Below, piece after piece: positions 1-64,000 of a stretch of 64,000 nucleotides of DNA; the first letter of the stretch is position 1; the number at the start of each line of letters is the position of its first letter. The notes below the pieces were generated by a model. The model was not told the DNA's origin. It did not search any database and saw only the letters and a list, made by a program, of their open reading frames with translations. Origin of the DNA: Candidatus Curtissbacteria bacterium (GTDB taxonomy: Bacteria > Patescibacteriota > Microgenomatia > Curtissbacterales > GWA2-41-24). The translations under genes and the position numbers were made by a program. The stretch lies in the NCBI GenBank assembly GCA_030647775.1, contig JAUSJC010000010.1:338646-402645 (forward strand). The letters run 5' to 3'.

Positions 1-378
1 AACATATCTTTCAAAGGGGAAACCCAAGGACAAGAATTGATAAGGTTTTATAAATCAAGTAGCGCCTTTATCCTTCCGTCAATTTACGAAGGCCAGCCAT
101 TAACCCTTCTTGAGGCCTGGGCAGCCAAGCTGCCGGTAATTGTAACGGCAACCGGTGATCTGCCATATCTAGTCAGGGATGGTTACAATGGCTATCTTAT
201 AAAAAACCACAAAGATGCACAGGGAATTGCCTCTCAAATCAAAAAAGCTCTATCCTCGAAAAATTTAGAGGATTTGGGTCAAAACGGCTATAATCTTGTA
301 ACACGTGACTTTTCCTGGGAAAAGTCCGCCCAAAAGACACTGGAAGTATATGAAAGCCTCACAAAAGCCCAAAATTAG
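1..378 (+). CDS. Glycosyltransferase family 4 (GT-B), C-terminal fragment; gene starts upstream of the window
   Basis: ORF 37..378 is open back to the window edge. It carries the GT1/GT4 C-terminal motif 'LPSIYEGQPLTLLEAWAAKLPVIVTATGDLPYLVRDGYNGYLI' (E-X7-E sugar-donor motif). Confidence 0.6.
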   Translation, partial: NISFKGETQGQELIRFYKSSSAFILPSIYEGQPLTLLEAWAAKLPVIVTATGDLPYLVRDGYNGYLIKNHKDAQGIASQIKKALSSKNLEDLGQNGYNLVTRDFSWEKSAQKTLEVYESLTKAQN

Positions 379-1099
379 CGTTGTTATGGCCGTTTATAAC
401 GGCATGCCTTTAGGCTCGCAGTCGGAGACGAGGACCGCAAGCTCTGCTTATCTTAAAGACGCCATCCAAAGTATTCTTGACCAAAGTTACAAAGATTTCG
501 AATTTATCATTATCAACGACGCTTCAACTGACGGGACAGCCAATTATTTAAAGAGTCTTTCGGACAAAAGAATAAAGATCATAATAAATGAGAAAAATCT
601 TGGCCTTGCCTTGTCTCTTAACATTGGTCTCAAAGCTGCCAAAGGGGATTATGTTGCCCGCATGGACGCCGACGACATCAGCCTCCCTCAGCGTTTTGAA
701 AAACAGATTAACTTTTTTAAAGCTCACGAGGATTATATTTTAGTCGGCTCCCAGGTTATGTGGATGGATAAAAATAATAACGTGATATCTGGTTTTGATG
801 TACCGTTAAAAGATGAAGACATAAGAAAAAAACTTATCGCGAGGAATCAGTTTCATCACGCAACGGTAATGTTCAGAAGATACGATATCGAAAAACTTGG
901 CGCATATAGAAATAACCTAAATGGGGTTGAAGATTATGACCTATGGTTCAGGGTCATCAAAAAAGGGAAGGTTGCCAACCTTCCGGAAAGATTAGTCAAA
1001 AGAAGGATTCACGAAAAAGCCTTAACCCAGAAAAACCATTTTAAGACAGAACTACTAGCCCTTAAAGTCAGGATCATGAATTTAGCCACTTTGAAATGA
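350..1099 (+). CDS. GT2 family glycosyltransferase
   Basis: 'KISVVMAVYNGM...ILDQSYKDFEFIIINDASTDGT' is a GT2 N-terminal signature, and 'ARMDADDISLPQRF' is the DXD region. Start moved to the internal Met (MKASQKPKISVV) to remove overlap with the preceding gene. Confidence 0.7.
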   Translation: MKASQKPKISVVMAVYNGMPLGSQSETRTASSAYLKDAIQSILDQSYKDFEFIIINDASTDGTANYLKSLSDKRIKIIINEKNLGLALSLNIGLKAAKGDYVARMDADDISLPQRFEKQINFFKAHEDYILVGSQVMWMDKNNNVISGFDVPLKDEDIRKKLIARNQFHHATVMFRRYDIEKLGAYRNNLNGVEDYDLWFRVIKKGKVANLPERLVKRRIHEKALTQKNHFKTELLALKVRIMNLATLK

Positions 1100-2001
1100 G
1101 TTTAAAAGGTAGAAAAATTTTAGTTACCGGCGGCATGGGTTTTATTGGGGTAAACCTTGCAACAGAATTAGAACAGCTTGGTGCCGACGTCACAATCTTT
1201 GATTTGGAAAAAGGTGACGATATCGAAGACTGTAAGAAATTAGAAAGTACAATCAAGAAAAGATTTGATGCCATTTACCACCTTGCCGGTTTCTCTGGTC
1301 CATCCGAAAGCAATAAAGATGTTAAAAAATCCTTCGGCATCAATACTTTTTCCACCGTTGATCTATGCAAGTTAATTCTTAAGCATTCCCCAAAAGCAAA
1401 ACTTGTTCTTTCTTCATCCAGATTAGAATATGGCAAACCGAAGTATCTGCCGGTTGACGAAGATCATCCCACAAATCCAATTTCCGCCTATGGACTCTCA
1501 AAACTTACAGCAACGCAAATGGCCCTCGTTTACAATAACAGATACGGCCTGGACGTAACGATCTTCAGGACATCAAATGTTTATGGCCCCCATAAGAAAA
1601 AACAATTTCCTGGTTATAACATCATCAACGACTTTATAGATAAAGCCAAAAGAGGGGAGACGCTGACAATCTACGGCGACGGCAACCAGGGAAGGGATTA
1701 CATCTATGTTGATGACCTTGTAGAAGCTTTTACGGCAGCTGCCAAAAACCCGAATATCTCCTCCGGGCAAATTTATAATCTTGGCTACGGAAAAGGCATA
1801 AAATTCAAAAATATGGTCAGCCTCATATCAAATAAGGCGGGTAAGGGAGAAATAGAATTTGTCCCTTGGCCAAAATCATATAAAGACGTCGAAACCGGAA
1901 GCTATATTAGCGATATATCCAAAATTAAGAAGCAGTTAGGTTTTTCGCCCAAAATTGGCTTTGAAGAGGGAATAGTCAAAACTATTCAAGCCCAAAGATG
2001 A
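1096..2001 (+). CDS. NAD-dependent nucleotide-sugar epimerase/dehydratase (extended SDR)
   Basis: N-terminal Rossmann 'ILVTGGMGFIGVNLATEL'. Catalytic YxxxK region 'AYGLSKLTATQM'. About 300 aa. Confidence 0.75.
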   Translation: MSLKGRKILVTGGMGFIGVNLATELEQLGADVTIFDLEKGDDIEDCKKLESTIKKRFDAIYHLAGFSGPSESNKDVKKSFGINTFSTVDLCKLILKHSPKAKLVLSSSRLEYGKPKYLPVDEDHPTNPISAYGLSKLTATQMALVYNNRYGLDVTIFRTSNVYGPHKKKQFPGYNIINDFIDKAKRGETLTIYGDGNQGRDYIYVDDLVEAFTAAAKNPNISSGQIYNLGYGKGIKFKNMVSLISNKAGKGEIEFVPWPKSYKDVETGSYISDISKIKKQLGFSPKIGFEEGIVKTIQAQR

Positions 2002-3104
2002 TAATTTTGTCCCCCCAACTCGGACTTTCCCAAAAGTCCATTTTGGGCGGAGAAGTTTTTGATAGGGAAATCCTTCTCGGGCTTGCAAAAAACGGCATAA
2101 AGATCGAAATAATTTTGCCTAAGGGTAAACCTCACGATGAAAATATCAAAAACTGGCACGTAACTTGCTTGCCGATATCTCATTTCCCGGCACAATTTTT
2201 TAATTTCCTAATAATTCCCCAGCTTCTCAAGTTAAGAAATAAAAACATCCAAATTATAAGACTTCACCAGCCGCAGTTTATGTTTATCGCGGCTATTTTA
2301 TTCAAATTTTTTAGTCCAAACGTAAAAACTCTTGCAACATATCATAAATTTGAGGAAACAAATTTTGGATTTCTTTCAAAAGCAGTCAACAATTTTTGGG
2401 ATCATATAATTTGTGATAGCGACACTGTAAAAATCAAGATTGAAGATAAATTTCAAGTCGATCCGGGGAAAATTACCGTCGTTCACAATGGCGTGCCTTC
2501 CTATCTAAAACCGGGATCCAAAGATAAAAGTCTTGAAAGAAAACTCAAGCTCGAAGGCAAAATTGTCCTACTTTTTATGGGGCTTTTTATAGAACGCAAA
2601 AATCCTCTTTTTATAATTGATGCTCTCGCCAAATTATCAGAGACAAATTCAAATGTAGTTTTGGTTTTTTGGGGTGAAGGTCCTCTGAAAGAAAAAATTG
2701 TAAAGAGGGCAGGAGAATTAAATATTGCAGAAAAAATTAGATTTATTGCCCCTGTGTTTGGTCCCAAGAAAAATAAAATCCATAATCTTGCCGATATTTT
2801 CGTTCATCCATCTCTGGATGAGGGATTTGCCCTAGCTCCGCTGGAAGCAATGGTCTGCGCAAAACCGGTCGTAATGACAGATGGCTATTCAGCAAGAGAA
2901 GCAGTTATTAATGGCTACAATGGTTATCTATGCCGCCCAAACGACATAAAAGATTGGGTAAATAAGCTAAGCCGATTGATCTCAGACAAAAATTTAAGGG
3001 CCAAAATGGGCAAGAACTCATATTCTAAAGCAAAAAAAGAATTTAGCTGGAATCAAGCCGTTGAAAAGCACGTAGAGGTTTTAAGGAGCTTAAATGAACA
3101 TTAA
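1998..3104 (+). CDS. Glycosyltransferase family 4 (GT-B)
   Basis: C-terminal 'HPSLDEGFALAPLEAMVCAKPVVMTDGYSAREAVINGYNGYL' is the glycos_transf_1 motif. 4-nt overlap with the neighbouring gene. Confidence 0.7.
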   Translation: MIILSPQLGLSQKSILGGEVFDREILLGLAKNGIKIEIILPKGKPHDENIKNWHVTCLPISHFPAQFFNFLIIPQLLKLRNKNIQIIRLHQPQFMFIAAILFKFFSPNVKTLATYHKFEETNFGFLSKAVNNFWDHIICDSDTVKIKIEDKFQVDPGKITVVHNGVPSYLKPGSKDKSLERKLKLEGKIVLLFMGLFIERKNPLFIIDALAKLSETNSNVVLVFWGEGPLKEKIVKRAGELNIAEKIRFIAPVFGPKKNKIHNLADIFVHPSLDEGFALAPLEAMVCAKPVVMTDGYSAREAVINGYNGYLCRPNDIKDWVNKLSRLISDKNLRAKMGKNSYSKAKKEFSWNQAVEKHVEVLRSLNEH

Positions 3105-3864
3105 AAAGCTATTCGTTGCTTCCGTGAAAGCGCTAGATCTTGGAAGCGCTTTGGCGGTCAGACTGACTAAATTAACAGGTAAATCAAAAGTCCCGATTCA
3201 TCCAAAACATCTATTAACCCAAAAACCCTGGTTTACGAAATATCTTAAAAGTTCTGATATTGTTCTGGATCTTGGCTGCGGTAATGGCCAAAATTCTATA
3301 AAAGCTTCAAAGATTGTCAAAAAAGTCGTCGGCTTGGAGCTTTCCGGTGAACTGCTAAATCTTGCAAAAGAATCATTTGGATTCAAAAGAATAAAAAATA
3401 TTAAATTCGAAATGGGAAATCTGGAGGAAAGGTTAAAATATAAAGACCAGGCCTTCGACAAGGTTATTTTCCTTGATGTCTTGGAGCATCTCATAAAAAG
3501 GGGTCAGGCTTTATCGGAAGCCAAAAGGGTTCTTAAAAATGGGGGACTGCTTTTCCTCGGAGTTCCAAATTCCGAAACCTCATGGAAGAAACTACAAAGG
3601 TCTGTTGGCATAAATTCTTTTTCCGACCCGGACCACAAAATTGAATTCAGAGAGGGCGCAATTAATAATTTGCTCAACAAAGAAGGTTTTGAAATTATAA
3701 AATTTGGCTATGGAAAATATGATATCCCGGCAAGGGGTTTGGTTGATATCATTGGCGGGTTTTCGCTTTATCTTTACAGGATAATTGATAATTTGAGGGC
3801 AAGTAAAGCGCAGGAAAATCCGAAAGAAGCTTCCGGATTCGAAATCGTCGCAAAGAAAATATGA
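3094..3864 (+). CDS. Class I SAM-dependent methyltransferase
   Basis: Motif I 'VLDLGCGNGQNS'; 'VIFLDVLEHL' post-I/II region. Confidence 0.65.
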   Translation: MNIKKLFVASVKALDLGSALAVRLTKLTGKSKVPIHPKHLLTQKPWFTKYLKSSDIVLDLGCGNGQNSIKASKIVKKVVGLELSGELLNLAKESFGFKRIKNIKFEMGNLEERLKYKDQAFDKVIFLDVLEHLIKRGQALSEAKRVLKNGGLLFLGVPNSETSWKKLQRSVGINSFSDPDHKIEFREGAINNLLNKEGFEIIKFGYGKYDIPARGLVDIIGGFSLYLYRIIDNLRASKAQENPKEASGFEIVAKKI

Positions 3865-5111
3865 ACATTCTTTTCTTAGCCAAATTCTATACGCCATTCG
3901 ACAGGGGAGGTTCGGAATGGAGTACCCATGACCTCGCCTATTTATTAACCAAAGATGGTCATAAAGTAACAATCGTTACACTAAACTATGGTGCTAAATC
4001 GCAAGAAGAAATTGACGGTATTAATATTATTAGGATTCCATTCCCAATAAAACTTAAAAATAGCAAAGGTTCAATCGCGCCATTTTGGACCAGTAACATC
4101 GTCTGGTTTATATATACCACCATTTTCTGTCTGTACCTGGCTATCAAAAATCACTACGAAATTATTCATGTTCAAAATAACGAATTTCTGCCGGCAGGGG
4201 TCATCTCGGCAAAATTTTCTGGTAAGAAAACCATGGCGACTTTCCGCGACTACCAAACCGTCTGCAGCCTTGGTTTTTGTCTTTGGCATAAAAATCAATC
4301 ATGCTCGTTTGAAGAATATTTACAAAACGATTTTGAGTTCTTTTATGATAATTATGTTGCTAATAAAAATATCCTCAAATATTACTTGTTAAAAATAGCG
4401 GTTTTAAGGGCATGGGTTATGCAAAAAATACTTTATTTTTTCGCTACCCACGTAGATTACAAAGTTGCTGTTTCCCAAAAAGTTAAAACTGTTTTCGAAA
4501 CGAATGGCATTAAAAACCTAAAAGTAATCCATAACCCAGTTATTATCGGCAACAAATTAAGCAGTTCTTACACGAACAAAATTATTTATATTGGTAAACT
4601 ATCAAAAGGTAAGGGGGTCGATATTTTTATCGAAGCCATACCCAAAATAGCATCAAGGTTTCACGATGTGTCATTTGAAATTATCGGGTCTGGGTATCTT
4701 AAAGAAAAACTGATAACCTTTGTAAGGTTGGCGGGTCTTCAGTCCAAAGTTAAGTTTGCTGGTCATCTAGGTCACGATGAAGCCCTTAAAAGGGTATCCA
4801 AGTCCGCTTTAGTAGTAGTGCCGTCCGTTTGGCCGGAACCCCTTCCAAGAAGTGTTATTGAAACGATTCTTTCCGGTACTCCGGTAGTCGCCACAAATGT
4901 TGGTGGCATAAGTGAGATTATCAAAAATAATTATTACGGAGTTTTGGCAAAACCAAGAAAGAATGACTTAGAAAAGGCAATAATTGAAGGGTTTAGTAAA
5001 AAGGATGGGCTTAGAAAAAACATTCAAGCAGATATTAATAAACTCAAAAATCATTTTTCAAAAGAAGTTTTAACGAGCTATGAGCGCCTTTATGAGGAGG
5101 CTCTTAAATGA
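3861..5111 (+). CDS. Glycosyltransferase family 4 (GT-B)
   Basis: N-term 'ILFLAKFYTPFDRGGSEWSTHDLA' (GT4 Glyco_trans_4-like). C-term 'PSVWPEPLPRSVIETILSGTPVVATNVGGISEII'. Confidence 0.7.
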   Translation: MNILFLAKFYTPFDRGGSEWSTHDLAYLLTKDGHKVTIVTLNYGAKSQEEIDGINIIRIPFPIKLKNSKGSIAPFWTSNIVWFIYTTIFCLYLAIKNHYEIIHVQNNEFLPAGVISAKFSGKKTMATFRDYQTVCSLGFCLWHKNQSCSFEEYLQNDFEFFYDNYVANKNILKYYLLKIAVLRAWVMQKILYFFATHVDYKVAVSQKVKTVFETNGIKNLKVIHNPVIIGNKLSSSYTNKIIYIGKLSKGKGVDIFIEAIPKIASRFHDVSFEIIGSGYLKEKLITFVRLAGLQSKVKFAGHLGHDEALKRVSKSALVVVPSVWPEPLPRSVIETILSGTPVVATNVGGISEIIKNNYYGVLAKPRKNDLEKAIIEGFSKKDGLRKNIQADINKLKNHFSKEVLTSYERLYEEALK

Positions 5112-6196
5112 CACTGGGTTTATTTTTAGCAATCGGTGAAAGCTTGGGCGATTTTAATTCAAAGGGGCAACTAAAAAGGCTCACCGGCTACAACATCAAA
5201 AAATACTCGGAGTCCTTCGGCAAAGTCTACATTTTTTCCTATGCGGACGAATACTTCGAATTACCGCAAAATTGTCAGCTTGTTGTCAATAAATACCATC
5301 TTCATCGTTACTTGTATGCATTTTTAATGCCAATAATTCATTATCGCCAAGTTAAAGATTGCAATATCTTAAGAGGTCTCCAAATAACCGGAGGTATTCC
5401 TGCTCTCGTATCAAAAATTCTCTACGGGAAAAAATTCACTATAAATTATGGATACGACTACTCACAGTTTGCGCTACTGGAAGGTAAACCGATCCAATCT
5501 TTATTTTATAAAATTATCAAAACTCCGATCCTGTTTCTTGCAGACTCCATAATTGTTCCCTCCAAAACGATTGCGGGAAGACTCAGGGAAAAATTTCCCA
5601 AGAAAATTGTTTACATCCCAAACGGCGTCGACGCGAAATTATTCTATCCATTAAAAACCAAGACTGATAAAAGGAGTATCGATATAGTTTTCGTCGGCAG
5701 GCTGGAAAAGCAGAAAAATCTTGAAAGTTTGATAAAAGCGGCTCGGGATTTAAAGATTAATTATAATTTAACATTTTACGGTGAAGGGTCTAAATTGGAA
5801 GAACTTCTGAAGCTGGCTAAAAATTTAAATGTCCCGCTTCAAATCAAGAAGCCAGTAGCTTACAAAGAAGTCCCCAAAATCCTAAGGAGTTGTGATATTT
5901 TTGTCCTTCCCTCTTATAAAGAAGGAAGCCCCAAAATTCTTTTGGAAGCAATGGCATCCGGTTGCGCCATCGTTGCATCCGGAATTCCCCAGATTACGGA
6001 AATCATAACAGATGGAGAAACAGGCGTGTTGACCGGACAAACGCCGCAGGAATTGGCAAATGTCATAGGTAAGTTACGGGATTTCAAAACCAGACAAAAA
6101 CTTGGACAAAATGCCAGGAAAACGGTAATAGAAAAGTACGAGATCAATAAACTACTGGCAAAAGAAATAACCATTTTAATAAATTTGGCAAAATGA
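5108..6196 (+). CDS. Glycosyltransferase family 4 (GT-B)
   Basis: 'VFVGRLEKQKNLESL' and 'LPSYKEGSPKILLEAMASGCAIVASGIPQITEIITDGETGVL' are canonical GT1/GT4 motifs. Confidence 0.7.
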   Translation: MTLGLFLAIGESLGDFNSKGQLKRLTGYNIKKYSESFGKVYIFSYADEYFELPQNCQLVVNKYHLHRYLYAFLMPIIHYRQVKDCNILRGLQITGGIPALVSKILYGKKFTINYGYDYSQFALLEGKPIQSLFYKIIKTPILFLADSIIVPSKTIAGRLREKFPKKIVYIPNGVDAKLFYPLKTKTDKRSIDIVFVGRLEKQKNLESLIKAARDLKINYNLTFYGEGSKLEELLKLAKNLNVPLQIKKPVAYKEVPKILRSCDIFVLPSYKEGSPKILLEAMASGCAIVASGIPQITEIITDGETGVLTGQTPQELANVIGKLRDFKTRQKLGQNARKTVIEKYEINKLLAKEITILINLAK

Positions 6197-7278
6197 AGAA
6201 AAAAATACTTTTTGTATATAGAACTAGACGTGGTCCGGCGCAAGAAAGTTGGCGGAAAGGAACAGGGCCGGACAGTCTGCTTTTTGGTTTTAATTATCTC
6301 AAAGAGCTAGGATATCAGGCAGATTTCTTCGATGGCGCATACTCGCCCTTTAATCCTTTTCATCCGATTTTCTATCCACTGGAGCACGCTATTATCAGTA
6401 AGGTAGGAATGGGTTTTAAACTCGACCAGGCGATATCCCTTTTACCAAAATTTAATAGCTACGATGTTATAGTCGCAACCGGAGATTCTGCCGGTCTGCC
6501 GCTTTTAGCCTTAAAACATTACGGTTTTATCAAAAAACCAATCATTTATATGACTGCCGGTCTTGCCGGAGCCCTAAAAGATAAGAACAAAAATTGGGTG
6601 GGGGATTTGTACCGGAAGATTTTGCCGGAAGCCGACGTTTTTACATCATACTCGCAAGTGGAAACGGACTTTTTCGAAGAACAAATGGGGGTTCCGAAAG
6701 GTAAAATAAAATTTATGCCGCTTGGTACCGATTGGCAATATTTCTCAAAACCGTCAAAGTTAAAAAGAGAAATAATATCAGCCGTTGGCGTTGATTCCGG
6801 CCGCGACTACAAGACTTTATTCGAAGCAGTCAAAGACCTAAACATTAAAGTTGAAGTGGCTTGTCACGCGTCTAACATTCAAGGCCTCAAAATTCCCGAT
6901 AACGTAATAATCCACTTCAATGTTCCGGTTCAAAAAGTAAAAGAAATTTATGGTAGGTCGCGGGTTTCCATAATTCCCTGCTTCGAAAAAAACCGCTCCG
7001 CCGGGCAAATGGTTCTATTGGAATCGGCCTCCGCATCATTGCCTATAATTGCTTCTAAAATAAAAGGCATAACGGGTGCCTTTAATTTCGAAGACAAAAA
7101 GCACCTTCTTTTTGTAAAGCCTCAAGATTCGCAGAGTTTGAAAGAAAACATAAATTATCTGTTGAATAATCAAAAAACAGCTACTGCCATTGGTCAAAAC
7201 GCATCAAAATTTGTAAAAAGTCATTACACAACTTATCATTTGGCAAAGAACATCGCAAAATTTATTGAAGATTTATGA
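6193..7278 (+). CDS. GT-B fold glycosyltransferase (GT1/GT4-like)
   Basis: C-terminal 'LLESASASLPIIASKIKGITGAF' resembles the glycos_transf_1 motif. Operon position between GT4 genes. Confidence 0.5.
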   Translation: MKKKILFVYRTRRGPAQESWRKGTGPDSLLFGFNYLKELGYQADFFDGAYSPFNPFHPIFYPLEHAIISKVGMGFKLDQAISLLPKFNSYDVIVATGDSAGLPLLALKHYGFIKKPIIYMTAGLAGALKDKNKNWVGDLYRKILPEADVFTSYSQVETDFFEEQMGVPKGKIKFMPLGTDWQYFSKPSKLKREIISAVGVDSGRDYKTLFEAVKDLNIKVEVACHASNIQGLKIPDNVIIHFNVPVQKVKEIYGRSRVSIIPCFEKNRSAGQMVLLESASASLPIIASKIKGITGAFNFEDKKHLLFVKPQDSQSLKENINYLLNNQKTATAIGQNASKFVKSHYTTYHLAKNIAKFIEDL

Positions 7279-8990
7279 AAAAGTTAACGCAGGAAAGATT
7301 ACTGCTGTCGCTTTTCATTATTCTTGTCTCCATTATTTACGGGCTTCCACATATAAAAATGATCCATAAATTGGGGTCGAAATATAACCCAATAGGATTG
7401 TCAGAGATTGCGTCAATACCCAAAGATAAGGCGTATGCTTACGCACCTTATGTTAACTATATTGCCAAAGGTAATTTCCCGTTAAGAGAAACTTATGTTT
7501 ATGAATACAAGGATTCTCAAACGCCATATATAGGGGAGACTCTCCCTGCAACACTTTTGGCGATATTATCAAAAGTGACAGGTTCAATACCAATGGGATT
7601 CCTTGCGGCTGATTTCATTTTTCCTCCGATTATCTTTGTTATGCTTTACTTAGTAGCGAGGCTTTTCATTAAAAATCATCTATTTGCCCTTAGCGCGGCG
7701 TTTTTAGCCGTTATCCTCCGTGATCTCGTGTTCGTCATTCCATATCCTCATGCCACCTTTCAATATTTGACGGATGCCGAGAATCAGCAGCAATTTCTTC
7801 ATTACTCACGTGCTTTTCACCCGCAAGTATCATTCTTTTTCTTCATTATGTCGGTTTTTTCTCTTCTTAAGTTGGTTTCAAATCCCAATAAAAAAATCGC
7901 CGTTTTGTTGGGAATTTTCTTCGGACTGCAATTTTATTCTTACCTTTTTGATTGGACTTATTTTTCGGTTTTCTTCTCGGTAATCTTTATATTCTTCTTG
8001 GTAAAAAAAGACTTTAAAATCATTAAATCAATGCTGATTGCCGGCACAGTCGCAGCAATCATAGGATCATTTTACTTTATAAACGGCTATCAATTTTCTA
8101 GATTAGATATTGCTCAGGATTTTATTAGAAAAATGACGGGTCAATCAGTACCGTTTCCAATAGCAACCTTAAGATTCCTATTAATCGCAGCCCTTTTCTT
8201 TATTTCCAAAAAGCGCAGGGATAACAAATTTATAACGTTATTTTTGTTTTTGCTTACCGGTGTTGCGATGGTCGCGATTTCAAAATTCGTGATAGGCAGG
8301 GATTTGGAAACATTTCATTATTTAAGAAGAGCCCTTGTTCCTTTTGCGACAGTCTCTCTCTTTATAATTGTATACAATATAATAGCGCGCAGTAGTAAAC
8401 GAATTATTTTTACCCTTTCAATTGCGGCCATTGCAATAACATTGTTTACCGGTATTAGGACTCAGGTAATTGCGACAAATGTACTTTCCCCCTGGCTAAT
8501 TTATGATCATGACCAGGTGAATTTGTTTAGCTTTTTGAAAGAACATACGCCGAAGGATTCCGTTATTGGTACTTTAAATATTGATTTGAATTATTTAATC
8601 CCCGTCTATACTAACAACAGAATTTATTTTCCACCCACTCTTAGAACAATTACCCCGACGTATGAAGAAGTCGACAGATATATTATCCTTGCCAATTTAC
8701 TGGGCCTCGATAGTAAATGGCAAAAGAAAAGCCTCGATACGTATCTTTTTTATATGTTCCACGCCATAGTGTACAGTACCGGAGGAGAGACTTCCAAAGT
8801 CAGAAATCAAACTGAGGAAAAGATACAAGAATCAGCGGACAACTGGGTGAACTCTTCAGGAAAGTATAGGCTCGATTATTTAATAGTTACTGCAAGCGAC
8901 TCTAACATAAAACCGGATTTGAGATTCCTACATCCCCTCACTACAGTGGACAAATATACCATCTTTACGTATTTAACTCCGCGAAAATAA
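7275..8990 (+). CDS. Polytopic membrane protein, unclassified (candidate GT-C glycosyltransferase/polymerase)
   Basis: At least 10 hydrophobic helices in the first ~400 aa followed by a ~170-aa soluble C-terminal domain. Membership in a glycosylation operon. Confidence 0.45.
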   Translation: MKKLTQERLLLSLFIILVSIIYGLPHIKMIHKLGSKYNPIGLSEIASIPKDKAYAYAPYVNYIAKGNFPLRETYVYEYKDSQTPYIGETLPATLLAILSKVTGSIPMGFLAADFIFPPIIFVMLYLVARLFIKNHLFALSAAFLAVILRDLVFVIPYPHATFQYLTDAENQQQFLHYSRAFHPQVSFFFFIMSVFSLLKLVSNPNKKIAVLLGIFFGLQFYSYLFDWTYFSVFFSVIFIFFLVKKDFKIIKSMLIAGTVAAIIGSFYFINGYQFSRLDIAQDFIRKMTGQSVPFPIATLRFLLIAALFFISKKRRDNKFITLFLFLLTGVAMVAISKFVIGRDLETFHYLRRALVPFATVSLFIIVYNIIARSSKRIIFTLSIAAIAITLFTGIRTQVIATNVLSPWLIYDHDQVNLFSFLKEHTPKDSVIGTLNIDLNYLIPVYTNNRIYFPPTLRTITPTYEEVDRYIILANLLGLDSKWQKKSLDTYLFYMFHAIVYSTGGETSKVRNQTEEKIQESADNWVNSSGKYRLDYLIVTASDSNIKPDLRFLHPLTTVDKYTIFTYLTPRK

Positions 8991-52679: not shown

Positions 52680-52723
52680 TGTTTGTGTTTTGGTGCTTGT
52701 TATTTGAATTTTCCTAGAAAAGG

Positions 52724-56824: not shown

Positions 56825-58105
56825 TCATTTCAGACATTGTTGATACCAAGTGAAACAAACATTGTAATTCTTTTCCGGGAACCAAAAACCTATTGCCTCT
56901 CCTGTCCCCAAAGCATAGTAAGCATCAAGAGAAGTTGAAATTCCATTATCACCTAAAATAAGCCTTGTACCAGGAGGGGGATTATCCGTTTCTATTTTTG
57001 TTAAATATATTTTTGCTAAATCGCTTCTTTTGATAACCCAACTGTTCTCTTGTAAAGTAACAACACCGAAAGCGTTAACTACAACAATTGCCATGATTAA
57101 AAGATAAGCGACATATTTAGGGGTTTGAGCAAGTGTTAGGCCGATGAGCATTGCCAGTCCCCATAAAGAAATATTCATGTAGTGGGGTGAAAGGTGGTTT
57201 GGAATTAAAACAAATGGGAGAAGGCCAATAAATATTACGAAAGCCGCGAAGATAAAAATTCTCTTGTCCGCTTTTTTCATAAGTTCGTGTGTGGTAAATA
57301 CACCGACTGTCAAAAGCCATAGCGCCAGCACCCCCGAAAGGATATTTAAATCTGTGCCCTCAACAAAACCGGGGATTCTCAAAAGATAATACTTCAAAGC
57401 TGTCAAAATACTTGGCGAAATTTCGATCTTGTAGGCATCAACCGCTGCGCTCGGAAACAAAAAGACAAGTTGGATGAAAGCAAAAATCGCGGAAACTACG
57501 CCGGTCAAAATTATCGGTTTTCCGATTCTCAACTTCCCACTTTCCAAAAAGTCCCATGCCAAAAATATTCCCGCACCGATAACCATTGCCTCGGATGCTA
57601 GTAGCGAAGTGATAAATAAGCCTACAGAAAGGGCAAACTTTTTTGAGAGGTAAAAATAAAATGAGGCAATTAAAAATGTAAAGCCGATTAATGTTGCCCC
57701 GCCGGAAATCCAATAAAGTGAAACAAAGTGTACGGGGGAGATTAAATAAAACACGGCAGAGCAAATTGCCGTTAGCCTATTTCTGGTGATTTTTATCATG
57801 GTTTTATAAATCAAAAAACCGCCGGTGATATGGATAATGAAAGTCAGAAGGTGATAGCCGAAATAATTTTTGCCAAATAGGCTATCACTTACAAAAAAGT
57901 AAAGGTTATGGATTGGCCGCCAGTGGGTGACGGTTGGTGCCCCAAAAACATTCCTTAAATTCGTTAAGAATCCATTTTGAGAAAAATGATTGATTAAAAT
58001 AAAATCATCCTGGGCAAAGAAATTGAAAAACGATTTATAAAAAACAAGTGCGCCGCCAGCCGCCAAAAGCAGAAAAACTAAAATATCTTTCCTCACTGTT
58101 TCCAT
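56825..58105 (-). CDS. Polytopic membrane protein, unclassified (possible GT-C glycosyltransferase)
   Basis: About 11 TM helices. 'KSFFNFFAQDDFILINHF' acidic first-loop motif after TM1. C-terminal ~60-aa soluble tail. Confidence 0.45.
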   Translation of the reverse strand: METVRKDILVFLLLAAGGALVFYKSFFNFFAQDDFILINHFSQNGFLTNLRNVFGAPTVTHWRPIHNLYFFVSDSLFGKNYFGYHLLTFIIHITGGFLIYKTMIKITRNRLTAICSAVFYLISPVHFVSLYWISGGATLIGFTFLIASFYFYLSKKFALSVGLFITSLLASEAMVIGAGIFLAWDFLESGKLRIGKPIILTGVVSAIFAFIQLVFLFPSAAVDAYKIEISPSILTALKYYLLRIPGFVEGTDLNILSGVLALWLLTVGVFTTHELMKKADKRIFIFAAFVIFIGLLPFVLIPNHLSPHYMNISLWGLAMLIGLTLAQTPKYVAYLLIMAIVVVNAFGVVTLQENSWVIKRSDLAKIYLTKIETDNPPPGTRLILGDNGISTSLDAYYALGTGEAIGFWFPEKNYNVCFTWYQQCLK

Positions 58106-58118: not shown

Positions 58119-59723
58119 TTGTCGCTAGGGACTTGCCCTATATATAATAGGGAAGTGAGATTATTAAAAATCCTGCTTGTAACCGCCTTCCTAAATGCCC
58201 TAGTCTGGATTATTATTGTTCCCGTCTGGCAATACCCCGACGAGCAAGCCCATTTTGCCCAGGTTCAATATTTGGCGGAAAACGGCAGGACACTTCACGA
58301 CAGCAAGGCCTTCGATACTTCTTACGAAATAGCTCTGTCAGAAAAAATTCTTGGGACTGAAAGGGACATAGGCGGTAATAACAAATTCATTTACCATCCT
58401 GAATTTAAAATCGGCTATTCTAAAACTTTAACTGGACCAAATGAGGGAAAAATTGCCAATTTACCCAAATCCGCCCGCTCTCGATTCGTAAAAAATGAGG
58501 CCACCCAAAATCCGCCGCTTTACTATTACCTTGGATCGGTTGTCAACAAGATATTCTCTTTTGGCGACCTTTTTACAAGGGTTTATGCCATAAGGGTAAT
58601 GTCAGCACTTATTTTTACTGGAACAATAATAGTTGCTTACAAAATAGGCGGGTTGATATTTGCCGGAGAAATTTTACCCCTGACGTTAGCAGCTATTATC
58701 GCATTCAAGCCAATGCTGGTTTTTTCTTCAACAGGCGTTTTACCGGATACCCTAACTAATTTTCTGTTCAGCCTTTTTATATTTTTATCTCTTAAAATAA
58801 TCAAATTTGGCATCTCGCCATCTAAAATTTTGGCCGTCTTGTTAATTATCGCGGCTGGCGCCGCGACTCGACAAAATTTTCTAATTACCCTGTTCATTTT
58901 CCCTTTGGTAATTTTACATCAATTAATCTTCAATAAAAAATCAAGACAGAAAGTAGTCTTTTTAATTATTTTCTGCGGTTTTCTGCTTTATGCGGCGAGC
59001 TTTTTCATTCCCGGAATGGATTTTATTCACCGCTTTGATTTCCCTGAATCCACAAGCCATAACCAATCGAACCCGCTGTTCCATATGGGGTTTGTTGACC
59101 ACTTTAAGTGGACGCTAAACCATACATTTAGGGAGGTTTGGCCTTGGTATTGGGGAATTTATAAATGGTTATCACTTCCTCTGCCTCACATAATTTACCA
59201 AATCATAAATAGGCTAACCCTTTTGTCGCTAGTTGGGCTTATTGTTTGGACAGTCCAACTAGCGAGAAGAAGGGAAGCGAAAAAAGAAATCCCGCTGATT
59301 TTTACTGTATCCACCGCTGTCATTTACTTCATGATGATAACTGTTTTCGACTATTTTTTTAGAAAAAATAATGGCTATTCTTTCGGTATTCAGGGGAGAT
59401 ATTTTTTCCCGGTAGTAATTCCCCAAATGGCAATCCTTTTAACCGGTTTTTGGGTCTTATTTGTTGTAATTCTTAGAAAATACGCAAGAATCGGAATTTT
59501 TATTATTTTAATTCTGGTCTTCATTTTTAATTCCATTTCGCTATTCGTCGTAGCTTCTTCGTATTACGATACCGGCAATTTACAAACGTTTATTAGGGAG
59601 GCGAGCCAATATAAACCATTAATTTTTAAAGGCAATATTATTATTTTAGTAATAGTTCTTTCCTTTGTCTCACAACTCTTTTTCCTCTTTAACTACGTAA
59701 GGGATATAATAAAAGAAAAATGA
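58119..59723 (+). CDS. DUF2142-like polytopic membrane protein (putative GT-C glycosyltransferase)
   Basis: 'IIVPVWQYPDEQAHFAQVQY' resembles the DUF2142 N-terminal P-D-E..H motif. 12+ TM helices. Confidence 0.45.
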   Translation: MSLGTCPIYNREVRLLKILLVTAFLNALVWIIIVPVWQYPDEQAHFAQVQYLAENGRTLHDSKAFDTSYEIALSEKILGTERDIGGNNKFIYHPEFKIGYSKTLTGPNEGKIANLPKSARSRFVKNEATQNPPLYYYLGSVVNKIFSFGDLFTRVYAIRVMSALIFTGTIIVAYKIGGLIFAGEILPLTLAAIIAFKPMLVFSSTGVLPDTLTNFLFSLFIFLSLKIIKFGISPSKILAVLLIIAAGAATRQNFLITLFIFPLVILHQLIFNKKSRQKVVFLIIFCGFLLYAASFFIPGMDFIHRFDFPESTSHNQSNPLFHMGFVDHFKWTLNHTFREVWPWYWGIYKWLSLPLPHIIYQIINRLTLLSLVGLIVWTVQLARRREAKKEIPLIFTVSTAVIYFMMITVFDYFFRKNNGYSFGIQGRYFFPVVIPQMAILLTGFWVLFVVILRKYARIGIFIILILVFIFNSISLFVVASSYYDTGNLQTFIREASQYKPLIFKGNIIILVIVLSFVSQLFFLFNYVRDIIKEK

Positions 59724-60276: not shown

Positions 60277-60834
60277 ATGTGTCTCTATAACAAGTTAAGA
60301 TATCTAATATTGCCTATCAGGCAAATAGATAGCGCTCTACCGTCAAGTGGCCAAATCGTCGACCTTGGCTGTGGTCAGGGTATCCTGGCCGCTTATCTGG
60401 CGAGGAGAAAAGAGCGCAATGTCATAGGCGTAGATCTCGACGCAGCTAGGTTGCCAAACAAAGAGTTGGCAAACCTTAAATTTATAAAGGCCGATATCAC
60501 TAAATACAATCTAAAAAACGTCGACGGTATTGTCATTTCCGACGTCCTTCACCATATAAGCCGTGTCGACCAAAGTGAACTTCTTGCCAAAATCGCCAAA
60601 GGTTTAAAGAGAGGGGGTATCCTTGTTATCAAAGAAATAGATTCGAAAGAATTTATCAGAAGCAAGCTTACCAGGCTCTGGGATTTTATTCTCTACCCCC
60701 ATGATGAAATTTCTTTCTCGAATTCCCAAACACTCACGCGAAATCTAAAAAGGTTAGGTTTTAATGTTAACGTCCAAAGGGTGGTTACATGGTTTCCCGG
60801 CTCAACCACTCTCTACATATGTACAAAAAGATAA
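60277..60834 (+). CDS. Class I SAM-dependent methyltransferase
   Basis: Motif I 'IVDLGCGQGILAAYLA'. 'GIVISDVLHHI'. 'GGILVIKE'. Confidence 0.6.
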   Translation: MCLYNKLRYLILPIRQIDSALPSSGQIVDLGCGQGILAAYLARRKERNVIGVDLDAARLPNKELANLKFIKADITKYNLKNVDGIVISDVLHHISRVDQSELLAKIAKGLKRGGILVIKEIDSKEFIRSKLTRLWDFILYPHDEISFSNSQTLTRNLKRLGFNVNVQRVVTWFPGSTTLYICTKR

Positions 60835-62465
60835 GCAGAGCTTTTCCGCGAATAAGCGAAGCTTTTCTACGAATAAGCAGAGCTTTTCTACGAATAAGCA
60901 GAGCTTTTCTACGAATAAGCAGAGCTTTTCATCAAATAATAAAATTTTGGCCAATTGCTACTCTTCTTTTAATAACCCTTATTTCAAGAATCATAAATTT
61001 AGAAAAACTTTTCTATTTTACCTACGATGAATCAATCCCGGCTTTTGTCGGCCGCCGCCTCATTCTTTGGTATCACATTCCCTTAATCGGCGGCGCCACG
61101 CCGTTTGGTTTTCACCTTGGCCCTTATTTTTACTGGTTTTACGCCGCGCTTCTTGCCGTCGGCCGTCTTAACCCGCTTGTCTGGGGATATGCCGCTACAG
61201 TCATTTCAGTATTTACTACCTTATTAATGTATATTGTCGGCAAGAACTTCGGCGGCAAAAAAGTCGGTATTACCGCGGCAGTGTTCTGGACGTTTTCGTA
61301 CCTTGCTAATATCTACGACCGCCATCTCTGGGCGCTTTTCTGGGGCCCGCTAACTAGCCTTTTAGTTTTGTTTTTCTTAGAAAAAATAATTTCCGGCCGT
61401 CAAAAATTCATTTATCTGCTTGCCTTAACAATTGGTCTTTCCATTCATGCCGATCCGTCGAATATTATCTTTGTCATTCTTGCCGTTTTTGCTTTCGCCT
61501 ACTGGAAGGTGTCTATCAAGAAGAATCTATCGATTCTTTTTGCGGCCATTATTCTTTTTACCCTTCCGCTTGTTGCTTTTGACCTTCGCCACGATTTTGC
61601 CAATATCCGCCCGACTGCAGGTTTCATCAAGGCCGGCGCAAACACCCCGGCAATCCGTACCCAAAAATTCGTTACCAATTCGCTTCTGTTCCCGCAGGCG
61701 GCAACACGCCTTGTCTATACTTTTGGGGATAACCAAGTTGCTAAACAGTATTCCTATTGCAAAAACTTCGTCGCCGAAAAGTTTGCCGCCACTGCTCAAA
61801 TCTTTGTTTTCTTATCCGCCTTTGCCATTCTTGCTTTCATCCTCTGGTCTTTCAAAAACCGCCAAAGTTTATGGTTTCTTGTTTCCAGTTTATTGTTGCT
61901 CTACTTCCTCGGCATCCAAATTTATGGCACGATTCTCGGCGGTGACATTTTTGAGCACTACATCACTGGCCTTTTCCCGGCGTTTTTACTAATTACCGCC
62001 TTTTTTGTAAGCAAATTACCCAAAAAACTTTGGCTTGTTGCCCTTGGCATTTTTGTCGCCGCCAATCTTTATAAATTATCGCTTGCTCAAAACAGTCAGG
62101 GGCTGACCGAAAAAAGAGAAGCAATTGAATATACAATGCGGCAGGTGGGGGATAAACCATTTTCGCTTGACTCCCTGTCAACCTGCTGGAAGTTGAATGG
62201 CTACCGCTATCTTTTTGCCGTTTACGGTAGGGAGCCGGTCAAAAGTTATGTCGACCCAAATTTTGCCTACCTTTATGGTACTACCCCGGTCTGGGATCAT
62301 CATCCGGCGACTGTCGTCGCCTTTGTGGTTCACGACTACGCCCCCGAAACTCAAGCCTTTTACCAACGCTACGCCCTTTTAAAATCCCACCAAATTTCCT
62401 CATCCAAATTTGGCTCCATTGAGGTAATCGTAATGGATAACTCAACAGGCTGGTTTGATAAATAG
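60819..62465 (+). CDS. PMT_2/ArnT-like polytopic membrane glycosyltransferase with N-terminal 7-aa tandem-repeat tail
   Basis: 'FYFTYDESIPAFVGRRLILWYHIPLIGGATPFGFHLGPYFYW' first-loop motif. Start assumed at 'MYKKISRAF' (16-nt overlap with the MTase). N-terminus holds (ISRAFLR)x4 encoded by a 21-bp tandem repeat. Confidence 0.55.
   Translation: MYKKISRAFPRISEAFLRISRAFLRISRAFLRISRAFHQIIKFWPIATLLLITLISRIINLEKLFYFTYDESIPAFVGRRLILWYHIPLIGGATPFGFHLGPYFYWFYAALLAVGRLNPLVWGYAATVISVFTTLLMYIVGKNFGGKKVGITAAVFWTFSYLANIYDRHLWALFWGPLTSLLVLFFLEKIISGRQKFIYLLALTIGLSIHADPSNIIFVILAVFAFAYWKVSIKKNLSILFAAIILFTLPLVAFDLRHDFANIRPTAGFIKAGANTPAIRTQKFVTNSLLFPQAATRLVYTFGDNQVAKQYSYCKNFVAEKFAATAQIFVFLSAFAILAFILWSFKNRQSLWFLVSSLLLLYFLGIQIYGTILGGDIFEHYITGLFPAFLLITAFFVSKLPKKLWLVALGIFVAANLYKLSLAQNSQGLTEKREAIEYTMRQVGDKPFSLDSLSTCWKLNGYRYLFAVYGREPVKSYVDPNFAYLYGTTPVWDHHPATVVAFVVHDYAPETQAFYQRYALLKSHQISSSKFGSIEVIVMDNSTGWFDK
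60831..60935 (+). repeat. Tandem repeat, 21-bp unit x5 (ATAAGCAGAGCTTTTCTACGA consensus; first and last units degenerate)
   Basis: Direct reading: 60831-60851, 60852-60872, 60873-60893, 60894-60914, 60915-60935. Units 3 and 4 are identical. Confidence 0.85.
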
Positions 62466-62505
62466 CGTTGTAACCCTAAAACCACTAAACTATACTTAAA
62501 TTCAA

Positions 62506-63729
62506 ATGCCAAAACGGCTCCTTAATTTGCTTTATACAGACACTGGCCGCGACACTTCTATTGTCTTTATCGGTACACTTATGAACGTAGTCGCGGGCGG
62601 TTTATTCTTCATCTTTGTCCCGCGGCTTTTAGGTCCCGCCAACTATGGTCTTTTCTCCGTTGTTATCTCTACGTGTATTATGGTTGCAGCAATTGCTAAT
62701 TTTGGACTAGATACAGGAATATTGCGCTTTGCCAAAAAAGAAAATACGCTGCTTGGTTTTGCTTTTAAATCTTATCTACTGCTAGGTTTGGCAACTGCAG
62801 TTCTGGGGTTTATTGCTGCTCCTTATATCGCACAACTTTTGGGCTATATTGAAGTTACCGCTCTGCTTCGGATCGGTTTTATTGGAGTTATTTTTATCCT
62901 GCTGACAAATTTTTTTGTGGCAGCTCTTCAAAGCAGGGGAGAATTCAAAAAAGCATCCATTGTTAATATTTCGTCGAACCTTTCGCGTCTTCTAATCCTG
63001 GCTATTGCTTATTATTTCTTTACTGTTAATTTAACTTTCTTAACTGCCCTCTTTTTTCTTATTACGGCAGTATCTGTCGTCATTGGAGCCGTTTATCAAC
63101 CAATCAGTTTTAAAAAAACTACGCAAAATAAAAAAGAATTTTTTAAATACAACTTCTGGATCGCGTCTGCGCTTATTATTTCTTCAGTCCCTTTCGACAG
63201 CTTCATTCTTCTTAAACTTGCCGGTCCCGTAGCAACCGGCCTCTATGCCGCCCCATTCAAGATTCTAACCTTTGCCTATCAATTCGGCGGTAATTTCACA
63301 AGAGTCTTGTCCAGCCGTTATTCAAGCTTCGATACTGCTGATAAGGCCATAAAGTTTTCAAAAAAATCCTTAGCGTTTCCGTTGGTCTTTTCCGCAGGAC
63401 TGGCATTTTTAGTTCTGTTGGCACCTTTCATAACAATTCTTTTTGGAGAGAACTTCGGCCCGGCCATCCCAGTTATGAGAATTCTCTCCGTAGGTTTTAT
63501 ATTCTTTTTCATCTCGACCATTCCCTCGTCCATTATTCTTTACTACTTGGGAAAATCAAACGTTTCTTTCTGGATCACGGTTATTCGCTATCTAGTGTTT
63601 ATAATCCTTCTTATTACCCTTGTTCCCCGGTTGCAAGCCATCGGGGGTGCCTGGGCGTTTACAATCACCGAGCTGATATCACTCGTTCTAATGTCGGCAT
63701 ATGCAATCTACAAGTTGCAAGCAAAATGA
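62506..63729 (+). CDS. Wzx-like oligosaccharide flippase (MOP superfamily, polysaccharide biosynthesis protein family)
   Basis: 407 aa, 12+ TM helices. N-term 'IVFIGTLMNVVAGGLFFIFVPRLLGPANYGLFSVVIS' is typical of Wzx/Polysacc_synt proteins. Confidence 0.6.
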   Translation: MPKRLLNLLYTDTGRDTSIVFIGTLMNVVAGGLFFIFVPRLLGPANYGLFSVVISTCIMVAAIANFGLDTGILRFAKKENTLLGFAFKSYLLLGLATAVLGFIAAPYIAQLLGYIEVTALLRIGFIGVIFILLTNFFVAALQSRGEFKKASIVNISSNLSRLLILAIAYYFFTVNLTFLTALFFLITAVSVVIGAVYQPISFKKTTQNKKEFFKYNFWIASALIISSVPFDSFILLKLAGPVATGLYAAPFKILTFAYQFGGNFTRVLSSRYSSFDTADKAIKFSKKSLAFPLVFSAGLAFLVLLAPFITILFGENFGPAIPVMRILSVGFIFFFISTIPSSIILYYLGKSNVSFWITVIRYLVFIILLITLVPRLQAIGGAWAFTITELISLVLMSAYAIYKLQAK

Positions 63730-64000
63730 ACATCAAGCTTTCGGTTATTGTTCCTGTTTATAACGAAGAGAAACGCCTCAAGGGCGGTTTTGAGCATTAC
63801 TACTCATATCTTAAAAAGCAGAAGTATCCGTGGGAACTGATTTTTGTCAACGACGGTTCGCGTGATAACACTCTTGACCTTTTAAATAAAACCGCCAAAG
63901 GCAAAACAAATATCCGGATCATTTCTTACGGACAAAACCGGGGGAAAGGTTATGCCATCGTTCAGGGCATTAAAAATGCCAATGGTGAGATTGTTTTATT
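63726..64000 (+). CDS. GT2 polyprenyl-phosphate sugar synthase-like glycosyltransferase, N-terminal fragment (runs off window)
   Basis: ATG overlaps the upstream stop (ATGA). 'KLSVIVPVYNEEKRL...WELIFVNDGSRDNT...GQNRGKGYAIVQGI'. No stop before the window end. Confidence 0.6.
   Translation, partial: MNIKLSVIVPVYNEEKRLKGGFEHYYSYLKKQKYPWELIFVNDGSRDNTLDLLNKTAKGKTNIRIISYGQNRGKGYAIVQGIKNANGEIVL

Follow-up and report, generated by a model that had tools for sequence, protein, structure and literature searches.

The window considered in this work is a stretch of 64,000 nucleotides (nt) that covers about 12% of a 526,960-bp contig from a metagenome-assembled genome (MAG) of Candidatus Curtissbacteria, a Microgenomates member of the candidate phyla radiation (CPR, Patescibacteria). 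It probably holds most of a cell-surface glycan locus of more than 64 kb, in which at least six multi-component transmembrane glycosylation modules are stacked and accompanied by further glycosyltransferases of the GT-C fold. Folds and families, gene pairing and synteny are observed directly and carry this reading. Relatives that were assembled independently show the same architecture.

Gene content of the window

The genes were inventoried by means of an open reading frame (ORF) listing, a Pfam scan of every ORF of at least 150 aa and a hydropathy scan. The window contains 57 complete genes and 2 partial ones in near gap-free packing. Twelve of the encoded proteins are polytopic membrane proteins of 426–615 aa with 7–13 predicted transmembrane (TM) helices, so the hydropathy scan returns the same number as an earlier note on this DNA. 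Together they amount to 6378 aa, or 30% of the window DNA. Twelve such genes among 57 are far above a scattered distribution, as judged without a formal baseline. The proteins are named M1–M4 and M6–M13. A 599-aa ORF at 15832-17631, without a Pfam match, was considered as a thirteenth membrane protein and ruled out by the hydropathy scan; the label M5 was dropped because this soluble protein has no TM helix. A Wzx-type flippase with 10 TM helices and an ABC-2 permease are also present.

The remaining inventory consists largely of enzymes of sugar synthesis, transfer and tailoring: 7 GT2 genes, 4 complete GT4 genes and a partial one, 5 DegT aminotransferases, 7 short-chain dehydrogenase/reductase (SDR) dehydratases or epimerases, 8 S-adenosylmethionine (SAM) methyltransferases, 3 acetyltransferases (2 GNAT, 1 hexapeptide) and 1 formyltransferase. 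The earlier counts of methyltransferases and acetyltransferases, as well as the ABC exporter, Wzx and formyl decoration, were matched by the Pfam inventory, and the reported interleaving of membrane proteins with ArnC/DPM1-like GT2 genes and tailoring enzymes is seen in the gene order. No tRNA genes or Rfam families were found within the window.

GT-C assignment of the membrane proteins

The 12 membrane proteins are as follows.

M1, 7275..8990 (+): 571 aa, about 10 TM helices and a C-terminal extracytoplasmic domain; GT-C fold by predicted structure
M2, 9982..11544 (+): 520 aa, C-terminal DUF6798; hhalign match to the M1 family; moderate
M3, 12839..14167 (+): 442 aa, GT87/PIG-M-like; strong
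M4, 14139..15845 (-): PMT_2 (GT39/83-like); strong
M6, 28950..30716 (+): PMT-like; moderate
M7, 34663..36321 (-): PMT; strong
M8, 39508..41355 (-): PMT_2; strong
M9, 48040..49365 (+): GT87/PIG-M-like; GT-C fold by predicted structure
M10, 54814..56505 (+): 563 aa, PTPS_related-like; moderate
M11, 56825..58105 (-): 426 aa, 7 TM helices; possible GT-C; weak
M12, 58119..59723 (+): DUF2142; strong
M13, 60789..62465 (+): PMT_2/GT39-like; strong

Support is good for eight assignments, moderate for M2, M6 and M10, and weak for M11. The claim that these proteins are of the GT-C type thus stands for eleven of them by structure, Pfam or profile comparison, and is weak for M11.

When predicted structures were compared with solved folds, the TM cores of M1 and M9, neither of which matches a Pfam or NCBIfam family, were found to be similar to those of solved GT-C enzymes, at a sequence identity of 8–16%. 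The top structural match of M1 was AftA, an arabinan/galactan enzyme. M9 resembles PimE and GPI-MT-I, and also the non-catalytic PIG-U/GAB1. The earlier note would have been contradicted by unclassified proteins that turned out to be transporters or polymerases; the M1 and M9 models are clear GT-C folds and are neither transporters nor Wzy- or ligase-like. Exact-match look-ups of NeuB and M1 returned no record. Searching the PDB with the individual sequences of M1, M9 and M13 gave no match, and profile searches with the M1 and M2 alignments returned only noise.

Profile comparison connects several of the proteins with the modelled ones. A five-sequence profile of M2, taken from syntenic loci, was aligned by hhalign with the M1 family at 93.3% (E 2.7e-7, 392 colinear columns), which makes M2 a probable GT-C protein and a remote homologue of M1. 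Neither protein belongs to a Pfam or NCBIfam family, the sole match being the short DUF6798 in the C-terminal domain of M2. For this reason, the suggestion that new GT-C families may be present stands for the M1/M2 pair, which looks like an unclassified GT-C family. The M3 family matches the M9 family at 98.4%; many M3 homologues match PF09594 (GT87), PIG-U or PIG-M, and remote ones are named "glycosyltransferase 87 family". M12, which matches DUF2142 above the cut-off (E 7e-23), aligns with the M9 family at 90.7%, and M11 does so at 48%.

Direct Pfam matches above the cut-off were also obtained for M4 (PMT_2, E 4e-14, 53.6 vs 26.1), M8 (PMT_2, 42.6 vs 26.1) and M7 (PMT, 28.1 bits vs 22.7). 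The PMT matches of M6 (E 8e-4, 19.5 bits) and M11 (E 1.8e-3, 18.4 bits) lie under the same cut-off of 22.7. M13 itself has no PMT_2 match; a few of its 55–66% identical homologues match PMT_2 (PF13231), one is named GT39, and the M13 family is aligned by hhalign with M6 (86%) and M4 (72%). Across Curtissbacteria homologues, the identity of M13 is 55–85%. M10 itself has no direct Pfam match. Its homologue in L015 (26% identity, E 1e-49; L-numbers denote homologous loci from relatives, on Patescibacteria contigs) matches PF10131 (PTPS_related) at 1e-12, above the cut-off, and this family is placed in the Pfam clan GT-C (PMC7801869). M11 adjoins M12 in L015, L018 and L020 as well as in the window. 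A scan of JGI metagenomes with M8 gave a single match, on one short contig, and close relatives of M8 appear to be rare there.

In solved GT-C enzymes, the catalytic acid sits a few residues after the first TM helix. All 12 proteins have an Asp/Glu motif close behind the first TM helix of their GT-C module, including DE in M6, M7, M8, M12 and M13, DD in M11, SDQ in M2, HSD in M3, IDVF in M9 and a conserved Asp in M1. In the aligned families of M1, M2, M3 and M9 the motif varies little or not at all, and the SDQ of M2 is invariant.

The earlier note had also spoken of paralogue richness. As a sign of recent duplication this was not borne out: pairwise similarity among the 12 proteins is almost nil, the best all-against-all BLASTP value is E 9e-5, and phmmer gives nothing significant. 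The sequences point to ancient, not recent, paralogues.

M9 carries a family-wide N-terminal extension of about 115 residues (residues 1-117, 48040-48390), which forms four helices in the model and precedes the GT87-like core. M3 is without this extension, and no Pfam family matches it. A SemiSWEET/PQ-loop or GtrA flippase was considered as its identity and rejected: the full profile matched SemiSWEET at E 0.018 and the isolated domain at 0.13, and related Pfam families are matched by none of the members. That the extension might be a built-in lipid-sugar flippase is speculation.

Gene pairing and predicted donor synthesis

Each of six polyprenyl-phosphate-type GT2 genes adjoins or neighbours a GT-C gene, namely M6, M7, M8, M9, M10 and M13/Wzx. 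The modules are listed below.

28288..32502 (+): methyltransferase, M6, methyltransferase, GT2 (31708-32502); by Pfam and NCBIfam
32558..36321 (-): GT2 (32558-33256), sugar C-methyltransferase (33266-34513), M7; by Pfam and NCBIfam
39508..46666 (-): Arn-like operon with SDR dehydratase 45689-46666, ArnC-like GT2 44976-45755, SDR 44000-44983, DegT 42905-43999, ABC-2 permease and ATPase 41352-42908, M8 39508-41355; by Pfam, NCBIfam and comparison with solved homologues
46783..51290: cassette with SGNH/AlgX-like protein 46783-48120 (-), M9 48040-49365 (+), DPMS-like GT2 49386-50123 (+), SGNH/AlgX-like protein 50100-51290 (-)
51291..54593 (-), divergent from M10: SDR 51291-52280, small ORF 52314-52679, DegT 52724-53863, GT2 53856-54593
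60.8-64 kb (+): M13, Wzx, GT2; by Pfam and translation

The seven GT2 genes lie at 305-1099, 31708-32502, 32558-33256 (-), 44976-45755 (-), 49386-50123, 53856-54593 (-) and, in part, from 63725. The first is EpsE/TuaG-like by NCBIfam, not ArnC/DPM1-like, and belongs with the cytoplasmic GT4 block. For this reason, the polyprenyl-phosphate-type genes number five complete and one partial, and the earlier figure of at least seven synthases is lowered to six, one of them cut by the window end. PF00535 is found in all six, in the partial gene via its translation.

Comparison with solved structures placed the GT2 at 44976-45755 closest to ArnC (E 1.3e-22; NCBIfam ArnC 2e-26) and the GT2 at 49386-50123 closest to Pyrococcus DPMS (E 8.3e-31), with GtrB next-best. 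The top NCBIfam matches of the others are PpgS/AglJ for 31708-32502, AglJ/Dol-P-hexose transferase for 32558-33256, and PgfS/AglJ/ArnC for 53856-54593, where streptococcal PgfS is the best. On these grounds, the six GT2 proteins probably act as polyprenyl-phosphate sugar synthases. At the threshold of the hydropathy scan, four of the five complete proteins show no hydrophobic segment; 31708-32502 has one mid-protein (131-149), and 32558-33256 has one at the very C-terminus only.

Synteny of the locus

Several Patescibacteria MAGs share the gene order at both ends of the locus, with 40–85% protein identity. The left block (GT2, epimerase, GT4, methyltransferase, three GT4, M1, methyltransferase, M2 and onwards to M3) is syntenic in at least five independent Patescibacteria contigs at 40–67% identity, and its part at 1..7278 is syntenic in L001-L004, L017 and L021. 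The right block (SDR, DegT, GT2, M10, M11, M12, acyltransferase, methyltransferase, M13, Wzx, GT2) is syntenic in four contigs. Within it, the SDR-DegT-GT2 genes at 51291..54593 are 55–79% identical and syntenic in L015/L018, and the Wzx-GT2 pair is shared with the same two loci. M1 and M13 are 53.5 kb apart in the window; their homologues are separated by 53.4 kb on a 677-kb contig and by 67.9 kb on a 137-kb contig. The loci of relatives run on beyond Wzx-GT2 with YfhO and PMT_2 genes (L018 14515-21509), so the true locus is longer than the window.

The earlier note had regarded the locus as a hypervariable island. Checked against relatives, this holds for the interior, where cassettes are inserted or lost, and does not hold for the ends, which are syntenic and form a conserved frame. 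The variation is cassette insertion or loss inside that frame. The 677-kb relative is without the SGNH-M9-GT2-SGNH cassette at the position of 46783..51290, and the 137-kb contig carries sulfation genes after its M3 homologue. In the closest relative (M13 85% identical), a methyltransferase that survives in the window as a remnant is intact, and an extra PMT_2-like gene precedes M13. The remnant, at about 54656-54784 (+), consists of the first approximately 50 codons of this methyltransferase, which is complete at the corresponding site in L018 and L020. A second one, at about 56671-56760 (-), comprises 30 residues that are 57% identical to M10 residues 32-61, on the opposite strand and beside M11. 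The GC content ranges from 0.33 (28-31 kb) to 0.44 (60-63 kb) and is lower in the interior. The repeat elements, gene remnant and GC anomalies mentioned earlier were therefore all recovered, as four repeat copies, two remnants and this GC range.

Proposed pathway and alternative readings

We infer the order of the reactions, the identities of the sugars and the acceptor from the gene families and their arrangement. In the cytoplasm, nucleotide sugars would be tailored by SDR enzymes, five DegT aminotransferases, formyl-, acetyl- and methyl-transferases and a pseudaminic-acid-like CMP-nonulosonate pathway. These genes imply, as far as family membership can indicate, amino-deoxy, N-formyl or N-acetyl, O- or C-methyl and nonulosonate sugars. 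The GT4 enzymes and the EpsE-like GT2 would build a lipid-linked oligosaccharide in the cytoplasm, while the six ArnC/DPM1-like GT2 proteins would load single tailored sugars onto polyprenyl phosphate. Wzx, the ABC-2 exporter or unlinked flippases could carry out the flipping. At the external face of the membrane, 11 or 12 GT-C proteins would then transfer the sugars to the GT4-block glycan and/or to surface proteins, and SGNH/AlgX-like proteins may attach or release O-acyl groups there. The use of polyprenyl-phosphate donors by the GT-C proteins is inferred from the neighbouring ArnC/DPM1-like GT2 genes only.

Several observations weigh against this pathway. M11 is weakly supported as a GT-C protein, and the assignments of M2 and M10 depend on profile comparisons from 3–5 sequences. 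None of the six polyprenyl-phosphate-type GT2 proteins reaches an NCBIfam equivalog cut-off, all scores falling far short (for ArnC, for example, 92.6 vs 529), and the hydropathy scan detects no membrane anchor of the ArnC/GtrB kind in them. A GtrA/SMR-type flippase is absent from the window by Pfam, and there is no intergenic gap large enough for one. Neither an initiating phosphoglycosyl transferase nor a Wzy-like polymerase was found in the window. The missing anchor does not exclude synthase activity because comparable enzymes are likewise without TM helices, as is the case with human DPM1 and Ppm1. The same applies to the GT-A enzyme GacI (PMC8035078).

The alternative that survives best is that the GT-C proteins mainly O-glycosylate proteins, such as pili, S-layer or Ser/Thr-rich surface proteins, and not a wall polysaccharide or lipoglycan. 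It is considered rather unlikely. Seven of the 12 membrane proteins are PMT/PMT_2-like, and the GT2 at 53856-54593 is nearest to streptococcal PgfS, Pgf-type systems being known to glycosylate Ser/Thr-rich regions (PMC12041528). However, PMT_2 also spans ArnT-type modifiers of lipids and glycans, M1 is closest to AftA, and M3 and M9 are like the lipid-glycan mannosyltransferases PimE and GPI-MT-I. In addition, the window has GT4 enzymes, Wzx and an ABC-2 exporter, as polysaccharide loci typically do, and contains no acceptor gene.

It is improbable that several of the Pfam-less membrane proteins are instead Wzy polymerases, O-antigen ligases, flippases or non-catalytic scaffolds, which would make the true GT-C count much lower. 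Wzx is present, and a Wzx/Wzy pathway needs a polymerase, none of which was identified; the structure models cover M1 and M9; and M9 also resembles PIG-U/GAB1, which is non-catalytic. Nevertheless, M1 and M9 model as GT-C and not as Wzy-like proteins, M3 is homologous to M9 (98%) and M2 to M1 (93%), the M10 family matches PTPS_related, and all 12 proteins keep the acidic motif after the first TM helix, (near-)invariant in the four aligned families. Wzy_C, O-antigen ligase, Bac_transf and Glycos_transf_4 had zero Pfam matches in any scanned ORF, so that of the components of a Wzx/Wzy-dependent pathway (Wzx, Wzy and an initiating transferase), only Wzx is present.

The idea that the density arose artificially in assembly or binning, through a chimeric contig in which glycan loci from several organisms were joined, draws on the MAG origin and the GC range along the window and can practically be dismissed, since two independent assemblies of relatives each have the left and right blocks on one contig, 53–68 kb apart, the gene order matches in further contigs, and M1, M3 and M13 are 100% identical to the NCBI proteins Q7S45_04235, Q7S45_04255 and Q7S45_04480, all recorded on one 526,960-bp contig.

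Beyond the stacked-module reading, a more ambitious combination can be put forward tentatively, with its joint truth regarded as doubtful: M1/M2 as an unclassified, largely Patescibacteria-restricted GT-C family, an extracytoplasmic assembly line of at least 12 GT-C proteins, and modules without GtrA-type flippases. A GT-C array extending beyond the window would then build a heavily modified wall glycopolymer, as mycobacteria build arabinan, at the cost of about a tenth of a sub-megabase contig. Flipping would fall to Wzx, to the ABC-2 exporter or to built-in segments such as the four-helix N-terminus of M9.

Comparison with known systems

In multi-component transmembrane systems, a GT-A enzyme makes a C55-P-sugar, a flippase moves the sugar across the membrane and a GT-C enzyme transfers it to an outside polymer or protein (PMC8035078, PMC11127046). 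Named examples are GtrA/GtrB/Gtr*, CsbB/GtcA/YfhO, GacI/J/K/L and L. lactis CsdAB/CD/EF, and published variants include a TM-less GT-A (GacI), a Wzx-type flippase (GacK) and, in L. lactis, a single flippase that is encoded at another site and serves several GT-A/GT-C pairs (PMC8035078, PMC11127046). The window resembles them in having polyprenyl-phosphate-synthase-like GT2 genes beside GT-C genes, GT-A proteins without TM helices as in GacI, a Wzx-type flippase as an option (cf. GacK) and pairs that could share few flippases (cf. L. lactis). It differs in its numbers, six pairs plus about six more GT-C genes where B. subtilis and L. lactis have three pairs each, and in the lack of a GtrA/SMR flippase and of a GacJ-like partner in the window. 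The donors are apparently heavily tailored amino, methyl or formyl sugars in place of Glc, Gal or GlcNAc, and the host, a CPR bacterium, has a reduced genome.

The operon at 39.5-46.7 kb matches the logic of the Arn pathway (ArnA/B/C/T, which places L-Ara4N onto lipid A), with a dehydratase-type SDR, a DegT/ArnB-type aminotransferase, an ArnC-like GT2 and a PMT_2/ArnT-type GT-C; a formyltransferase is present but elsewhere in the locus. Unlike in the Arn pathway, the scores are far under the ArnC and ArnT equivalog cut-offs, the operon GT2 is without the two C-terminal TM helices of ArnC, and an ABC-2 exporter takes the place of ArnE/F. Lipid A is a lipid of the Gram-negative outer membrane. 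Since Patescibacteria are generally described as being without an outer membrane, the acceptor of the Arn-like operon is probably not lipid A.

Mycobacterial assembly of arabinogalactan, lipoarabinomannan and phosphatidylinositol mannosides (Ppm1, the decaprenylphosphoryl-arabinose (DPA) pathway, Emb/Aft/PimE/Mpt) likewise relies on many GT-C enzymes acting outside with polyprenyl-phosphate donors, which here would be the predicted donors. M1 is closest to AftA, M9 matches PimE, and the synthases are TM-less like Ppm1. In contrast, identity to the solved enzymes is as low as given above and no pentofuranose pathway based on phosphoribosyl pyrophosphate was seen. Mycobacterial GT-C genes are spread over a 4.4-Mb genome, while a comparable number, equal to that of a mycobacterium's whole genome, is found here in one 64-kb locus.

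O-antigen and capsule loci (e.g., Leptospira rfb) resemble the window in that conserved ends enclose a variable, lower-GC interior. Further shared features are the many tailoring enzymes, the nonulosonic-acid genes, Wzx, an ABC-2 exporter and a LIC12162-like protein. However, 30% of the window DNA encodes GT-C proteins, and the window shows no Wzy, Wzz or initiating transferase. To our knowledge, GT-C genes are absent from classical O-antigen loci or occur singly.

The mechanism is thus of a known kind, and what is new is the M1/M2 family, the concentration of GT-C proteins in one locus and the setting in a reduced CPR genome. CPR bacteria have minimal genomes and probably live attached to hosts. 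The commitment of at least 64 kb of a 527-kb contig to surface glycosylation would imply an elaborate and variable sugar coat that is central to CPR biology, with possible uses in attachment, host recognition and phage evasion. The compact GT-A/GT-C pairs for unusual amino, methyl and formyl sugars, together with the M1/M2 family, are candidates for new CAZy families and for glyco-engineering. With no dedicated flippase in the window, the locus may also become a test case for how polyprenyl-phosphate sugars cross the membrane. A full-text search of an incomplete literature collection found nothing on GT-C-rich or glycosylation loci in CPR/Patescibacteria.

Tailoring, nonulosonate and export genes

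The features outside the modules are listed below.

1..7278 (+): left cytoplasmic assembly block, by Pfam and NCBIfam; partial GT4 1-304, EpsE/TuaG-like GT2 305-1099, SDR epimerase 1096-2001, GT4 1998-3104, methyltransferase 3094-3864 and three GT4 3861-7278
9009..9890 (-): SAM methyltransferase; by Pfam
11633..12826 (+): DegT-family sugar aminotransferase; by Pfam
15832..28110 (-): nonulosonic-acid (pseudaminic-like) pathway and partners, by Pfam and NCBIfam, all below equivalog cut-offs; 599-aa LIC12162-like protein, GNAT, PseC-like, surface-carbohydrate protein, GFO oxidoreductase, cytidylyltransferase, NeuB/PseI-like, PseB-like, SDR, DUF218
about 22400-23704 (+): DUF4910 protein, within the preceding (-) block
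23701-24495 (+): formyltransferase, within the same block
36390..39505 (+): decoration genes (methyltransferase, membrane-anchored SGNH/AlgX-like protein with one N-terminal TM helix, methyltransferase, GNAT); by Pfam
59720-60274 (+): hexapeptide acyltransferase; by Pfam
60277-60834 (+): methyltransferase; by Pfam
62506-63729 (+): Wzx-type flippase; by Pfam
63725-64000 (+): DPM1/ArnC-like GT2, partial, cut by the window end; by translation

The nonulosonate pathway is likely present, and its product sugar is best left general. The NCBIfam scores fall short of the cut-offs for PseB (305.9/407.8), PseC (197.3/423.5), NeuB (334.1/399.7) and PseI (300.7/340.3), and the cytidylyltransferase is nearer to KdsB than to PseF. 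The soluble 599-aa protein at 15832-17631 (-), a candidate nonulosonic-acid transferase, adjoins the nonulosonate genes and weakly matches both the LIC12162 O-antigen transferase family and "surface carbohydrate biosynthesis protein". A DUF4910/DUF2172/HTH_47 aminopeptidase-like protein and the formyltransferase lie at 22091-24495 (+), opposite to the nonulosonate operon. The ORFs 21559-22620 (-) and 22091-23704 (+) overlap by about 530 nt, and both of the overlapping N-termini are probably over-extended because the Pfam domains begin at residues 116 and 110.

The three membrane-anchored SGNH/AlgX-like paralogues, at 37036-38232 (+), 46783-48120 (-) and 50100-51290 (-), are 28–31% identical. 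They are probably extracytoplasmic O-acyl transferases or esterases acting on the glycan. No MBOAT-type partner for them was found in the window.

The sulfation genes of the 137-kb relative are an ATP-sulfurylase, an adenosine phosphosulfate (APS) kinase and a sulfotransferase (L017 18143-21734), and it may be asked whether that relative makes sulfated glycans. In L018, a Y1 (IS200-type) transposase (11636-12298) adjoins the M13 homologue. Between the DegT and SDR genes, which adjoin each other in relatives, the window has a 121-aa ORF at 52314-52679 (-) that is unrelated to glycosylation and appears by eye to be like the "four-helix-bundle / 23S rRNA intervening-sequence protein" type.

Repeat elements

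A repeat of 50-90 nt occurs in four copies at gene junctions (15771-15862, 17515-17565, 28983-29074 and 34584-34634; 0.02 expected by chance). It always lies on the + strand, regardless of the strand of the neighbouring gene, its core is ATTTTGAGCGAAAATCAGAGAACC-stem-loop-GTGGGAATCTATT, and it has no Rfam match. A stable hairpin or terminator was considered and rejected, three of the four copies folding no better than shuffled sequence. In a relative, the repeat lies inside a GT4 gene (L017 about 8395-8470, -), where it forms a 24-residue in-frame insertion, RFPRSGGRGSLFLAQDSLHFARNK. This same peptide makes up the N-terminus of the M4 ORF in the window. The element thus resembles in its behaviour the in-frame insertion elements of the Rickettsia-palindromic-element type. 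The true start of M4 is probably later than that of the ORF because the first approximately 35 codons cross the repeat; M4 homologues in L021/L004 have 482–503 aa.

An in-frame tandem repeat of 21 nt, ATAAGCAGAGCTTTTCTACGA, is present at the N-terminus of M13 (60831-60930; 4.8 copies, 92% matches). It encodes RISRAFL-type heptads before the first TM helix and is included in the NCBI protein model. M13 homologues appear to be without it because they are about 35 residues shorter, a comparison of lengths and not of alignments. The repeat could be a length-variable, slippage-prone tract.

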